Origin: a virus
Taxonomy: Duplodnaviria > Heunggongvirae > Uroviricota > Caudoviricetes
Length of the DNA stretch: 35,574 nt
Strand: one strand, 5' to 3'
IMG/VR virus record: IMGVR_UViG_2698536477_000007
Both the position numbers and the translations under genes were made by a program. Shown here in pieces: positions 5,532 through 35,574 of this stretch (positions are counted from its first letter, which is position 1; each line of letters opens with the position of its first letter). The notes under the pieces were generated by a model. The model was not told the DNA's origin, made no database searches, and saw only the letters and a program-made list of their open reading frames with translations.

Positions 5532-5766
5532 ACACAAAAAAACCGCTTGCCAGCGTTCGCCTGGTCGGGTTACAGTTTTCCCGCACCTCATAAAACGGGT
5601 GCCGGGTTTCGCAGCCTGCTGACAACCAAAGCGCACAACCGCGCCAGCGGTTTTTTTGTGCGTACTGTATTGCCACGTTTTTTTCGCGTCAGAATTATGG
5701 CGGGGCGTACGGGGCCGACTTCGGTCGGGCCGGGTTCTTTGGTTGCCGGTACTGCGAACCCCGTAC
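5532..5766 (+). other. Structured GC-rich non-coding element (candidate RNA leader or terminator-promoter module)
   Basis: Perfect 15-bp inverted repeat CACAAAAAAACCGCT (5532-5546) / AGCGGTTTTTTTGTG (5645-5659); hairpin plus T7 run at 5636-5656; 9-bp perfect stem CGTACGGGG (5705-5713) / CCCCGTACG (5758-5766) enclosing a cUUCGg tetraloop hairpin (5714-5727); ORFs overlap in all frames here. Confidence 0.35.
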
Positions 5767-5836
5767 GTCTCGCCACCCACAGTTTCGCAGCTCTGGATGG
5801 TGAGTTTTCAAAACTTACAACCAAAGAGGCCACACC

Positions 5837-30420: not shown

Positions 30421-32094
30421 ATGAACCCCACTAAACGTCTGTTACTGGGTAACGACACCATTCAGCTGGTCAGTTGTTCCGTCATGCTTGAGCTGAACGC
30501 GTGCGGACGCGGATTTATCACGGCCAGAACAGAGCAGAACTACACCGGGCGCCCCGTTCGTCTCGATATCGGATACGGAAACGACCTGGTGCGCTGGTTT
30601 ACCGGATACGTTGAACGCAGCCAGCCCGCTGAAAACGGCTCGGTGCGGCTTCTGATTCGTGAAATGGCGGGGATCCTTGATCACCCCTTCCCCTGTTCAT
30701 TTCAGCACCCGACAATGCGCACGGTCACACAGTGGCTGAGTGAGGCCAGCGGGCTGGAAATCATCCTGCCGGACAACGCGGCTTACACTGACAGACCCGT
30801 TCCGCATTTCACACACAGCGGCACGGGCTACGAACTGCTGGCCAGTCTGGGGCGTATTTTCTCCGTACCGGATTACATCTGGCATCCGTTACCGGACGGC
30901 GGCATTATGGCCGCTGCTGCCGCGCAGGGGATGTTTTCCGGTCGCCCCGTCACCATCCCGCACGAGTTCAGCCAGGCATCAACGGGCGGGCACAGTATGA
31001 CCCTCCCGATGATTCAGACGCTGCGACCGGGTGTGGAGGTGAACGGTCAGCGCCTGACGATGGTCATGCTGGAAGATGACAACATGACCATCACGTGGAC
31101 ACCGCGCAATAAAGCCACCGGCGCTCCCCTCCAGAAGTCCCCTTTCCGTCGCCAGGCTGAAAAGGCCTTCCCTGAGCTGGCATCAGGGCTTCACCTGCCC
31201 AAACTGGCACGTGTTGAGGCACCGACCGAAGCCGTCAGCGCGGGCAATATTGCCGACCCGTTCAGACCCCGCTACGCGGTGAATCTCCAGCTGCTTGACG
31301 AGAACGGCAACCCGGCAGCAGATACGCCCGTCTATAACGCCGTTCCCCTCCCCGTTCCCATGGCGGGCAGTGAGTCCGGCATGTTCCAGTTCCCGCCACC
31401 CGGAACCCTGGTGGAAGTGGGATTTGTGGAAGGCCGGGCGGATAAGCCCTTCATCCGCCAGATAATGGCAGAGGGCCACAATCTGCCCGACGTGAAGCCG
31501 GGCGAGCAGTTGCAGCAACAGCGCGACGGCGTATCGCAGCGCGTGACGGTCGCCGGAGACTGGGAGCGCCAGACAGACCAGCGGATACAGGAGACATCAC
31601 GCGAGCGCGTGGTGAGTGCAGACGAGGAAAAGCGGAGCCTGACCAGCCGGGAGACCACCATACAGGCAACCGACACAACCACCGTCCTGGGCGTATCCAC
31701 GCTTCAGGCTGGCGCGGTCACCCATATCACTGAAGAGAACTACAGCATCAGCACGGGCGGGCACATGATGGTGGTTGCCGGTACCTGTGAGCGCGACGTG
31801 GAAGGCGACACCCAGGACACCGTGGGCGGCAGCCTTACCGAAAAGATTAAGGGCGTCCGTCACAGTATTGCGCTGGCGCAGAAGCTGGTTGGCGATACGG
31901 TGAAGCTGGGAAACGAGGGCATTAATGTACTGACCATGCTGACGGACCTTGCCGATGTGGTGGAAGAGCTGGCCGATATTACAGCATCACATACCCACCC
32001 AAAAACGGGCACGTCTCCGCAGGCCGCACAGTTCAGCCAGGTCGCTCAGGAGTGCCGCCAGCTTAAAAATAAATATTCACCAATAATCGAATAA
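30421..32094 (+). CDS. Baseplate hub/spike protein (gpD-like N-terminus with gp5/VgrG-type fold segment)
   Basis: 557 aa; ...FPPPGTLVEVGFVEGRADKPFI... resembles the conserved gpV/VgrG spike motif; last gene of tail operon. Confidence 0.6.
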   Translation: MNPTKRLLLGNDTIQLVSCSVMLELNACGRGFITARTEQNYTGRPVRLDIGYGNDLVRWFTGYVERSQPAENGSVRLLIREMAGILDHPFPCSFQHPTMRTVTQWLSEASGLEIILPDNAAYTDRPVPHFTHSGTGYELLASLGRIFSVPDYIWHPLPDGGIMAAAAAQGMFSGRPVTIPHEFSQASTGGHSMTLPMIQTLRPGVEVNGQRLTMVMLEDDNMTITWTPRNKATGAPLQKSPFRRQAEKAFPELASGLHLPKLARVEAPTEAVSAGNIADPFRPRYAVNLQLLDENGNPAADTPVYNAVPLPVPMAGSESGMFQFPPPGTLVEVGFVEGRADKPFIRQIMAEGHNLPDVKPGEQLQQQRDGVSQRVTVAGDWERQTDQRIQETSRERVVSADEEKRSLTSRETTIQATDTTTVLGVSTLQAGAVTHITEENYSISTGGHMMVVAGTCERDVEGDTQDTVGGSLTEKIKGVRHSIALAQKLVGDTVKLGNEGINVLTMLTDLADVVEELADITASHTHPKTGTSPQAAQFSQVAQECRQLKNKYSPIIE

Positions 32095-32108
32095 TCATTC
32101 ACTTTAAC

Positions 32109-32133
32109 AGGCCGCGCAATGTGGCCTTTTTTA
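32109..32133 (+). terminator. Rho-independent terminator of the late tail operon
   Basis: Stem GGCCGC (32110-32115) / GTGGCC (32121-32126) with 5-nt loop, followed by TTTTTT (32127-32132). Confidence 0.55.
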
Positions 32134-32219
32134 TTCCCGGACGATAAAAAATATTCATCAACGGACATCACCCACCACGAAAAACCGTCCGCAGCAGAAA
32201 AAAAGATGGACGAAACGCC

Positions 32220-32790
32220 CCACGTAATCCCCGCGTAAAACGTCACGTAACGCCACGTAACGAAGAGATAACCCCGCCGGCCCGATTCGATCCCCTGACA
32301 TCAGAAAACGATTTCTGCGCCCCAGAATCGCCGCAAATGGCCGGAAATTTTCGGGGGCGACGTAACGCGTAAAGTGACGTAATCGGCGCTACCCCGCACA
32401 CGCCTCCGGTATTTGTGTACGATAAATTTTGCAAATCGAAATGGGTGCAAAACACCCCGCCAGGGCGCGCCATTACTGAGGTTTTCCCTTCTGAATGGTT
32501 TTGCACTTTGTGCAAGGTTTTGCAAAAGTGTGCAAAAACTCCGGCTTTCTGAGGATCCCGAAAAAATTTAATGCACTGAATAACAAGAGATTTTTAAAAT
32601 TACGTCACGATCGAAGATCTGAAAAAGGATCCGACGACGAAAACGAAAAAATCAGGAAAGCCAGAACTGGCGCGGCCTGGCGGGGAGTGGCAGCAAAAAT
32701 CACTTTTGCACACTTTTGCACAACTGCTCCGAAAAAGGATGGCGAAGGGGAAGGAAAAACAGCCACGTCATCCGTTGCACGTAACGGACG
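32220..32790. repeat. Non-coding region dense in short repeated motifs (CACGTAACG-type and TTTTGCAC/GTGCAAAA-type)
   Basis: ACGTAA at 32222, 32245, 32255, 32360, 32377, 32780 plus inverted TTACGT at 32600; TTTTGCA/TGCAAAA clusters at 32427-32450, 32498-32540, 32701-32723; no credible ORF. Confidence 0.5.
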
Positions 32791-32955
32791 TAAAAGGTAA
32801 ATTACGCGCGGGTGCCTTTCGGCTGACGGCTGGAAGGAATACCTGAAGGCCGGATGTGAAAAGGCCCCGAGTCAACTAACGTTAACCCGAGGCCCTGACA
32901 CTTCCTACCTGACAAGTGGAAGGTTAGCGCCTCCCTGTAAAAGGAGTCAAGCGCT

Positions 32956-33096
32956 ATGCCGCAAAAAACGATCATAGTGAGCATTTTATGCATAACTATT
33001 TTGATGATTGTCTGGATGATACACACGTCACCGTGTGAGTTCAGGCTTAACATCATGTGGTCAGAATTTGCGGCGTTCTTGCAGTGTAAACAGTAA
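32956..33096 (+). CDS. hok: Hok-family type I toxin peptide, copy 1 (46 aa)
   Basis: MPQKTIIVSILCITILMIVWMIHTSPCEFRLNIMWSEFAAFLQCKQ: single transmembrane helix, conserved LCIT, C-E and E-x-AAF spacing of Hok/Gef; AAGGAG ribosome-binding site 10 nt upstream. Confidence 0.75.
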   Translation: MPQKTIIVSILCITILMIVWMIHTSPCEFRLNIMWSEFAAFLQCKQ

Positions 33097-33185
33097 GAAA
33101 CCGCAGCGGGGGTGAAAGCCCCCGCTATCCGGTTGCCGGGTTCGGCTGATATGGCACCCTTTTGGGTTAGCGTACTGACTTCATT

Positions 33186-33210
33186 GCCCGCAATATGCGG
33201 GCTTTTTTTT
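33186..33210 (+). terminator. Rho-independent terminator at end of hok unit 1
   Basis: GCCCGCA-ATA-TGCGGGC followed by T8. Confidence 0.6.
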
Positions 33211-33427
33211 GCCGTCTCCCCTCAACAGCTTCAATACTGAGCATTGCGCACACAAAGGGAAATCAGTAAATTACATGCGGGTGCCTTTCGGCTGACGACT
33301 GGAAGGAATACCTGAAGGCCGGATGTGGAAAGGCCCCGGAGTCAACTTTAATGTTAACCCGAGGCCCTGACCATCTACCCTAAGCAAGTGGAAGGTTAGC
33401 GCCTCCCTGTAAAAGGAGTCAAGCGCT

Positions 33428-33568
33428 ATGCCGCAAAAAACGATCATAGTGAGCATTTTATGCATAACTATTTTGATGATTGTCTGGATGATACACAACT
33501 CACCGTGTGAGTTCAGGCTTAACATCATGTGGTCAGAATTTGCGGCGTTCTTGCAGTGTAAACAGTAA
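33428..33568 (+). CDS. hok: Hok-family type I toxin peptide, copy 2 (46 aa)
   Basis: Identical to copy 1 except T24N (MIHNSPCEF). Confidence 0.75.
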   Translation: MPQKTIIVSILCITILMIVWMIHNSPCEFRLNIMWSEFAAFLQCKQ

Positions 33569-33658
33569 GAAACCGCAGCGGGGGTGAAAGCCCCCCGCTA
33601 TCCGGTTGCCGGGTTCGGCTGATATGGCACCCTTTTGGGTTAGCGTACTGACTTCATT

Positions 33659-33683
33659 GCCCGCAATATGCGGGCTTTTTTTT
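33659..33683 (+). terminator. Rho-independent terminator at end of hok unit 2
   Basis: Same hairpin and T8 run as unit 1. Confidence 0.6.
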
Positions 33684-33900
33684 GCCGTCTCCCCTCAACA
33701 GCTTCAATACTGAGCATTGCGCACACAAAGGGAAATCAGTAAATTACATGCGGGTGCCTTTCGGCTGACGGCTGGAAGGAATACCTGAAGGCCGGATGTG
33801 GAAAGGCCCCGAGTAAAACATTTGTTTAACCCGAGGCCTAACCCTTCCTACCCTAGACAAGTGGAAGGTTAGCGCCTCCCTGTAAAAGGAGTCAAGCGCT

Positions 33901-34041
33901 ATGCCGCAAAAAACGATCATCGTGAGCATTTTATGCTTAACCATGTTGTTGACCGTCTGGATGATACACCGTTCTCCGTGTGAGTTCAGACTTAACATCA
34001 TGTGGTCAGAATTTGCGGCGTTCTTGCAGTGTAAACCGTAA
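33901..34041 (+). CDS. hok: Hok-family type I toxin peptide, copy 3 (46 aa, diverged)
   Basis: MPQKTIIVSILCLTMLLTVWMIHRSPCEFRLNIMWSEFAAFLQCKP; several substitutions relative to copies 1 and 2. Confidence 0.7.
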   Translation: MPQKTIIVSILCLTMLLTVWMIHRSPCEFRLNIMWSEFAAFLQCKP

Positions 34042-34132
34042 GAAACCGCAGCGGGGGTGAAAGCCCCCGCTATCCGGTTGCCAAAGGTTCGGTCGAAAGT
34101 CGCACCCTCACACAAAAGTCACAAAGAAAAAC

Positions 34133-34170
34133 AAAGCCCGCGGCGTAAAAAAACTGCGGGCTTTTTGTTT
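34133..34170. terminator. Bidirectional rho-independent terminator (serS on minus strand, hok unit 3 on plus strand)
   Basis: AAGCCCGC...GCGGGCTT stem with A/T runs on both sides, about 110 nt past serS stop. Confidence 0.6.
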
Positions 34171-34281
34171 CAAAGATGGACGTTATCTGGACACATGAAA
34201 ATAAAAAATCTTTATTTTCAATATGTTAATCTCCCACTAAAACCACCCGCAGGCGCTTTTTAGATTCAGAAAAATTGGGTA

Positions 34282-35574
<1,293 letters not shown>

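Follow-up and report, generated by a model that had tools for sequence, protein, structure and literature searches.

Why should a temperate phage carry three copies of a host-killing gene side by side at one of its ends, and are these copies working toxin-antitoxin modules of the phage, relics of duplication, or chromosomal DNA that merely adjoins it? The question is raised by the IMG/VR virus record IMGVR_UViG_2698536477_000007 (Caudoviricetes), a stretch of 35,574 nucleotides that we analysed at its full length and refer to as the window, in which three hok-like units lie close to serS. Comparative analysis indicates that the three units are apparently intact type I toxin-antitoxin modules of the hok/sok type, arranged in tandem at the attR end of a prophage of the P2 family, each with a predicted Sok antisense RNA, and that their most likely role is a benefit to the prophage.

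The array consists of three direct repeats within 32797-34170, with start-to-start periods of 472 and 473 bp and a 227-nt core that is 94% identical between copies. Each unit contains an intact open reading frame (ORF) of 46 amino acids (aa) with the sequence AAGGAG located 9 nt 5′ of its ATG, and each is followed by a terminator-like hairpin and T-run; unit 3 has a different 3′ end, at which its own hairpin and T-run are seen in the fold. A first-pass annotation of this DNA, made by a model from the letters alone, had described three tandem hok-like units of ~470 bp, each with its own ribosome-binding site and terminator, and this description stands. Its bounds for the array, 32798-34080, are too narrow: the whole array extends over ~32775-34168, with the terminator of unit 3 lying past the claimed end.

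All three peptides score above the gathering score of the Pfam HOK_GEF family (PF01848; 27.8-29.4 bits compared with 22) and cover profile positions 7-42 of 42, so that the Hok/Gef likeness proposed for them, along with an alignment to family models as the way to check it, is borne out. They display the features by which the family is recognized, namely a length of ~50 aa, a hydrophobic helix at the N-terminus and, towards the C-terminus, a Cys-Glu motif that is conserved: residues 5-22 are hydrophobic, and the subfamily alignment shows no variation at C27-E28, R30, E37 and A39-K45 (AAFLQCK). RefSeq already names all three genes 'Hok/Gef family protein' in E. coli O22:H8 strain 154, which is 100% identical to the window. 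The peptides are 80-87% identical to each other and to 82_1289, a 46-aa construct described in a 2025-26 preprint (10.1101/2025.08.07.668861) to which the unit 3 peptide is ~80% identical, and 48-57% identical to cluster 72 of the same work. Both 82_1289 and 72_1589, a member of the same 46-aa group and the homologue from Stx phages, were cloned there as test constructs from high-abundance clusters, and neither is among the non-toxic homologues, which number 3 of the 45 tested (10.1101/2025.08.07.668861). These results suggest indirect experimental support for the toxicity of the 46-aa subfamily, and we regard the copies in the array as putative toxins.

The array is accessory cargo (a moron) of a P2-family prophage that has integrated into E. 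coli DNA between dmsA and serS, and it occupies the attR end. A phage integrase gene lies beside dmsA at one end of the window and serS lies at the other, and between them are found genes for Cox, a replication endonuclease, ogr, portal, terminase, the GPO scaffold, a P2-family capsid, gpM, and tail and baseplate proteins. In E. coli strain OkiPb01677 this prophage, its three hok genes included, adjoins zapB, and homology to the window runs up to ~34261 there; E. coli strains free of the prophage at serS align from 34239 onward only. The 23 bp common to both alignments overlap the serS terminator and are likely the core of the attachment (att) site. Because the array travels to zapB with the prophage, and because empty sites align only from 34239, the array belongs to the prophage and lies just inside attR. 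The comparison with prophage-free strains that the first-pass annotation had proposed thus settles the origin of the DNA as phage, and it moves the array from the position given for it, between the prophage tail end and serS, to the inside of the prophage next to attR.

Relatives of the array are widespread among phages. Related hok copies, one or two in number, come after ogr in further P2-like prophages at serS, Stx phages carry one copy downstream of lom, and a scan of viral contigs returned 307 confirmed relatives, further two- and three-copy arrays included. A scan of genome contigs returned only 6 loci, several of them with implausible organism labels, and the comparative set used below was drawn from viral contigs and E. 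coli records. E. coli-type hok units of the subfamily were also returned from an 857-bp contig under the label Xanthomonas pisi, from a Planococcaceae metagenome-assembled genome and from an assembly given as Vagococcus sp.; these oddly labelled hits (L005, L007 and L008) probably reflect contamination or mislabelling, not real host range. The ogr gene adjoins the portal gene in the window, whereas in a P2-like prophage of the comparative set (L003) it lies at the right prophage end, and two differently organized P2-family phages therefore share the same module of hok and attR arm. Paired direct repeats occur just inside attR (ATGGACG...CTGGACA at 34176-34193) and at the integrase end (ATGGACA...ATGGACA at 8-27), and we take these ATGGACA-type repeats, by analogy with P2 attP, to be candidate integrase arm-type sites flanking the att core.

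The hok transcript predicted for each unit has the anatomy of a hok messenger. A non-redundant set of 31 family mRNAs was aligned (alignment A3). The promoter elements TTGC.C and TAAATT are kept between the units of the array although the surrounding upstream sequence differs by 67%, the –10 box reads TA[ACG]A[TA]T family-wide, the 5′ end GGGTGCCTTTCGG is likewise conserved, and a GGCACCC element stands at a fixed distance 3′ of the hok stop codon. The extreme 5′ end (tac) can fold back onto a 3′ element (fbi), and this pairing appears in the minimum-free-energy (MFE) fold of unit 3. Across the 31 mRNAs, the tac-fbi fold-back and the hairpin of the 3′ untranslated region are paired in 94% of cells, compared with 33-52% when the partners are slid by 1-3 columns, and 6 of the 8 pairs of the second fbi helix show compensatory changes. 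An alternative local tac stem, mutually exclusive with tac-fbi, is paired at 95%, and column 10 co-varies with both of its alternative partners; in the slid-partner controls for the two structures, pairing amounts to 25-68% overall. The predicted long-range fold-back and exclusive local stem match the architecture of the hok mRNA of plasmid R1, which is summarized in PMC9841398.

On the opposite strand, each unit contains what appears to be a complete gene for a short antisense RNA. The minus-strand promoter TTGACT-18-TAACCT is identical across all three units, and none of the 31 family sequences departs from TAACCT or from the TTG of the –35 box, at a spacing of 17 or 18. When the start of Sok is placed ~7 nt downstream of the –10 box, the predicted RNAs are 56-59 nt long and comprise a 5′ tail of 18-20 nt that stays single-stranded, together with a hairpin of 15 bp (–22 to –27 kcal/mol) and a U-run. 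A hairpin of 12-17 bp with a U-run is kept in 31/31 members, among which there are 26 distinct hairpin sequences. The antisense-strand hairpin is stabler than its sense-strand counterpart in every one of these members (31/31; mean –22.6 compared with –13.2 kcal/mol), which argues that it serves a minus-strand transcript. The upper stem changes register between subgroups, and RNAalifold on the Sok alignment therefore recovers the invariant lower stem only; per-sequence folds, a chimera test and a strand-asymmetry test were used in its place, and in the chimera test hairpins made of their own halves are better by a modest 3.2 kcal/mol on average. Of the 31 members, 29 have a target loop with 0-1 nt between the end of a YUNR motif and a conserved CAAG that follows it (shuffled sequences: mean 4.0, maximum 11), and the YUNR U-turn is a feature of antisense targets (Franch et al. 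1999, as cited in PMC1635323). A cis-encoded Sok with its own promoter and terminator in each unit is supported by these predictions, and the conserved promoter and strand-specific terminator hairpin lie where a Sok-like RNA had been expected, on the minus strand around the hok 5′ region.

The three units differ from each other above all in the sequence by which Sok would recognize its target. Their coding sequences (CDSs) differ by 2 nt between units 1 and 2 and by 13 nt in unit 3, whereas a leader patch of ~45 nt shows 33-51% difference between units as against 0-5% in its flanks (Fisher p = 6e-7 to 1e-13), and this variable patch is the complement of the 5′ tail and hairpin loop of the predicted Sok. 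In 155 pairs of family units whose CDSs differ by no more than 2 nt (0.5%), the tail has diverged by 15.3% per nt and the remainder of the leader by 4.5%. Within arrays, 11/11 comparisons show neighbouring tails separated by 5 or more edits in ~29 nt, one of them in an array with two identical CDSs. Because the units differ mostly in the Sok tail and target patch, each of the three probably has its own, partly insulated antitoxin. The tail divergence is compatible with selection for antitoxins specific to each copy, and equally with recombination of hok loci into mosaics, as the same tail and loop variants turn up in varying combinations.

The array also bears the marks of recombination in its larger structure. 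Units 2 and 3 have identical upstream spacers (0/57 differences), and units 1 and 2 have identical 3′ ends (0/78) and near-identical CDSs. The statement that copies 1 and 2 are nearly identical and copy 3 has diverged is right for the CDS; taken as wholes the units are mosaics, and the successive duplications read from it are too simple a history for such recombinants. A two-copy relative (L013) has the appearance of unit 1 followed by a copy that joins a unit 2 leader to a unit 3 body. Unequal crossing-over between units accounts for most of the array structure. The simple form of this model, in which the middle copy joins the left part of copy B to the right part of copy A, was rejected: it accounts for the shared spacers and fails for the differing tails of units 2 and 3, which need an extra event.

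Several results weigh against taking the three units for intact and separately controlled hok/sok modules. A consensus promoter scan of 32700-34300, which asks for at least 4/6 matches per hexamer, reported no sigma-70 site; both –10 boxes are weak by that rule, and the TTGCAC/TAAATT and TTGACT/TAACCT boxes are predictions found by comparative alignment only. The match to the Rfam hok/sok leader model RF01794 spans the full model length in every unit (unit 1, 32810-32967, 35.8 bits, E = 8e-6; unit 2, 33279-33439, 44.0 bits, E = 5e-8; unit 3, 33752-33912, 51.3 bits, E = 6e-10), yet falls below the gathering score of 59 each time. The peptides score far below the cut-offs of the NCBIfam HokA equivalog NF007290 (37.9-40.7 bits compared with 89) and of the Hok subfamily NF007279 (27.3-30.5 bits compared with 73). 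In none of the three units does an ATG, GTG or TTG frame cross the hok start or reach the hok Shine-Dalgarno (SD) sequence, as a mok leader ORF would, and the hok SD is mostly sequestered in all modelled states (probability unpaired 0.03, 0.08 and 0.03). The predicted duplexes formed by the tails are strongest for cognate pairs (~–60 kcal/mol), and those of non-cognate pairs, at –35 to –39 kcal/mol, are still substantial. From the sub-threshold NCBIfam and Rfam scores it follows that the units belong to a divergent subfamily, not to HokA-E.

The lack of mok concerns the mechanism of the whole subfamily. No convincing mok frame had been found in the first reading of the sequence, and none exists in any unit; among 46 family members, a mok-like frame occurs in only 19, with start positions that are scattered and not conserved. 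In R1, translation of mok up to the hok SD is mandatory for translation of hok (PMC9841398), and since mok is absent here the R1 mechanism is not simply transferable and the 46-aa subfamily must be controlled differently. A CDS of Stx phages labelled 'MokW-like host killing' was considered as a mok and rejected, as it is the 141-nt Hok ORF itself, the true hokW/mokW being a separate locus. One route of control would be a switch in RNA structure, in which Sok, by binding the target hairpin on its 5′ arm (GAGGC included), frees GCGCCUCC to pair with the hok SD. A partition-function model of this anti-SD switch moves in the expected direction in 30/31 members with a very small effect, and lends weak support to what we treat as a working hypothesis. 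Cleavage of the Sok-hok duplex by RNase III, which takes place in R1 and in part in the hokW-sokW module of Sakai prophage 5 (Sp5) (PMC8621323), would be an equally plausible route. Tentatively, and with doubt prevailing, one may go further and propose that the 46-aa subfamily is a mok-independent form of hok/sok, in which Sok controls translation by RNA refolding (a CCUCC anti-SD clamping the SD) and diversifying selection on tail and loop keeps tandem and co-resident antitoxins from cross-reacting. If so, a single prophage could accumulate several kill switches that act independently.

Homology with R1 hok/sok, together with the elements conserved in the family, leads us to infer the following course of events. 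Each unit would be transcribed from its own promoter into a hok mRNA of ~400 nt, in which pairing of tac with the 3′ fbi locks the full-length RNA in an inert form. Slow trimming of the 3′ end would then free the 5′ end for the alternative local stem. Meanwhile a short (56-59 nt), presumably unstable Sok would be made from the minus-strand promoter within the leader, and its single-stranded 5′ tail would pair with the YUNR-containing leader loop and neutralize the mRNA, probably via RNase III cleavage of the duplex and/or the clamping of the hok RBS (ribosome-binding site) by the freed CCUCC anti-SD. Without a mok leader ORF, Sok would have to control hok without translational coupling. Once transcription of the locus stops, Sok would decay first, the 46-aa Hok would be made, and the inner membrane would be depolarized.

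Given such a mechanism, the most likely role is that of a module benefiting the prophage, which would promote retention of the prophage and/or kill the cell when an infecting phage shuts off transcription, possibly with some help to lysis on induction; R1 hok/sok is cited in PMC10305079 as excluding T4. It is also conceivable, though rather unlikely, that the same parts serve mainly as hokW-sokW does in the Stx phage Sp5, where SOS induction makes Sok fall and Hok accumulate, so that lysis and progeny release are aided, in place of prophage stabilization or abortive infection. Takada et al. 2021 showed this role for a prophage hok/sok, phage release being halved without the module (PMC8621323), and Stx phages also have a copy of the 46-aa family. 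However, hokW is a different locus, encoding 51 aa and accompanied by mokW, and nothing ties the array to SOS or to late transcription: its promoters are its own, look constitutive and stand 700 bp from the late operon, and three copies are not obviously needed for a lysis function.

An intact module that benefits the prophage is to be preferred by a wider distance to a third reading, which we hold improbable: that duplication has left three relics which are decaying and no longer function, like several chromosomal hok pseudo-loci of K-12. Degeneration of some chromosomal hok loci is reported in PMC2887945, the absence of mok can be read as loss of a required element, and the hok SD stays sequestered in the models. 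Yet ORFs, SDs, both promoters, tac, fbi and terminators are intact in all three units, the mok-less layout is common to the whole subfamily, including tested representatives that lie outside the non-toxic 3/45, and compensatory changes maintain the structure while the Sok hairpin is kept on the antisense strand in 31/31. An origin of the array in the host chromosome, at a junction by serS prone to recombination and abutting the prophage by chance, is barely credible, for although the array sits between the last phage structural gene and serS and hok copies adjoin serS in other strains too, an identical array accompanies the same prophage to zapB, strains without a prophage at serS have nothing left of 34239, and serS-linked hok copies always come after phage genes such as ogr.

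Compared with hok/sok/mok of plasmid R1 (parB), the units share a small Hok/Gef membrane peptide, a ~400-nt mRNA with tac-fbi fold-back and alternative tac stem, and a short cis-antisense RNA from a leader promoter that has a single-stranded 5′ tail and a terminator hairpin and is directed at a YUNR loop, all of these RNA features being predicted here. They differ from it in peptide length (46 aa compared with 52 aa in R1, the two being weakly similar), in having no mok and hence no translational coupling, and in lying on a prophage in three tandem copies, not on a plasmid. The closest relatives are clusters 72 and 82 of Escalera-Maurer et al., which consist of 46-aa Hok peptides, belong to the same subfamily, are likewise phage-borne and share the mRNA architecture across the 31-sequence alignment; they include the single copy downstream of lom in lambdoid Stx phages (933W, VT2-Sakai), whereas three copies stand here at attR of a P2-family prophage. 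The preprint analysed coding sequences only, explicitly not mok, Sok or RNA structure, and reports that hok islets of 2-6 copies, arising from local duplication, hold 10% of Hok genes and 13.5% of those on Escherichia chromosomes, that hok is about four-fold enriched in prophages, and that three copies occur in 0.2% of hok-carrying phages (10.1101/2025.08.07.668861). The array therefore belongs to an ordinary, already catalogued kind of element with genes already annotated in RefSeq, and the first-pass view of triplicated hok loci beside a prophage as unusual was overstated.

The hokW-sokW module of Sp5 is likewise a prophage-encoded hok/sok type I system. In it, sokW neutralizes HokW with contributions from RNase III and Hfq, and lysis after induction is assisted; it is the sole prophage hok/sok with an experimentally assigned role (PMC8621323). 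It differs from the present units in being single-copy, in its HokD-like peptide of 51 aa, in its annotated mokW and in its place, which in 933W is 58463-58615 compared with ~45.5 kb for the 46-aa copy. Stx-converting phages thus carry a second hok locus, of the 46-aa subfamily. In 933W (L092, AF125520.1) this locus occupies ~45492-45869, just downstream of lom, and is unannotated in the original record; in TL-2011c (L091) it is the CDS at 1669-1809, which RefSeq labels 'MokW-like host killing' though it is the Hok ORF.

Tandem duplication of whole toxin and antisense units is described in PMC2887945 as a recognized trait of type I systems. In E. coli, the loci ibs-sib and ldr-rdl resemble the array in placing tandem type I units in one intergenic region, and differ from it as unrelated toxin families on the core chromosome. 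Han et al. in 2010 reportedly found that Sib RNAs discriminate their cognate ibs mRNAs via variable recognition domains. We infer that the Sok tails may behave as such recognition domains, discriminating between copies; in the literature searched, no description or test of copy-specific antitoxin recognition in hok arrays was found. To our knowledge, the mok-less layout and the fast-diverging Sok recognition patch are likewise without a description in the papers searched. As a catalogue entry the array has little value, tandem prophage-borne hok loci being documented already. Its interest lies in a widespread phage-borne Hok subfamily, present in Stx phages too, that appears to work without mok, through which textbook Sok acts, so that a different control step must exist, and in an antitoxin recognition patch that evolves ~30 times faster than the toxin CDS and differs in every neighbouring pair examined. 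This divergence bears on the ways in which cross-talk between repeated type I modules is avoided or put to use. The coordinates of the features are collected in Table 1.

Table 1. Features of the three hok/sok-type units and of the right prophage boundary, in window coordinates.
Feature	Position	Strand	Details
hok promoter, unit 1	32775..32803	+	TTGCAC - 17 nt - TAAATT; predicted +1 at 32810
Predicted full-length hok mRNA, unit 1	32810..33210	+	tac 32810-32826; fbi 33142-33159; terminator 33186-33210
hok ORF 1, 46 aa (MPQKTIIVSILCITILMIVWMIHTSPCEFRLNIMWSEFAAFLQCKQ)	32956..33096	+	RefSeq WP_032209947.1 'Hok/Gef family protein'; Pfam HOK_GEF 28.4 bits
Predicted Sok1 antisense RNA, 56 nt	32859..32914	-	promoter TTGACT (32945-32950) - 18 nt - TAACCT (32921-32926), minus strand; ends predicted
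hok promoter, unit 2	33244..33272	+	TTGCGC - 17 nt - TAAATT; predicted +1 at 33279
Predicted full-length hok mRNA, unit 2	33279..33683	+	fbi 33615-33632; terminator 33659-33683
hok ORF 2, 46 aa, T24N relative to ORF 1	33428..33568	+	RefSeq WP_032209945.1; Pfam HOK_GEF 29.4 bits
Predicted Sok2 antisense RNA, 59 nt	33328..33386	-	ends predicted
hok promoter, unit 3	33717..33745	+	TTGCGC - 17 nt - TAAATT; predicted +1 at 33752
Predicted full-length hok mRNA, unit 3	33752..34168	+	tac 33752-33770 : fbi 34087-34107 in MFE fold; terminator ~34134-34168
hok ORF 3, 46 aa (MPQKTIIVSILCLTMLLTVWMIHRSPCEFRLNIMWSEFAAFLQCKP)	33901..34041	+	RefSeq WP_001135720.1; Pfam HOK_GEF 27.8 bits
Predicted Sok3 antisense RNA, 59 nt	33801..33859	-	ends predicted
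Likely att core (AAAACCACCCGCAGGCGCTTTTT)	34239..34261		overlaps serS terminator; prophage right boundary

Unit 1 of the hok array is separated from the last baseplate/tail gene by ~700 bp of non-coding DNA (32100-32796) dense with short repeats. This stretch holds 8 of the 23 ACGTAA copies in the window (7 on the + strand), 8 of the 14 copies of TTTTGCA and several inverted repeats of 20-27 nt, and the ACGTAA count of the whole window exceeds that of all 100 shuffles. Two ACGTAA copies, at 32779 and 32788, fall within the spacer of the unit 1 hok promoter. An annotated 'hypothetical protein' in 32100-32796 gave no Pfam match, and a reading of the stretch as a degenerate fourth hok unit was considered and rejected; it looks like a cluster of putative protein-binding sites. 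The last structural gene before it (557 aa, 30421-32094) matches PF04717, the OB domain of baseplate and type VI secretion system spikes, at 18.6 bits, below the threshold of 23.8.

The early region of the prophage contains two RNAs that score above the Rfam gathering score, the Hfq-binding RNA isrK (5583-5657, 65.9 bits) directly followed by the C4 antisense RNA (5693-5780, 87.1 bits), a small-RNA pair whose other known settings are immunity regions of the P1/P7 type and islands of Salmonella.

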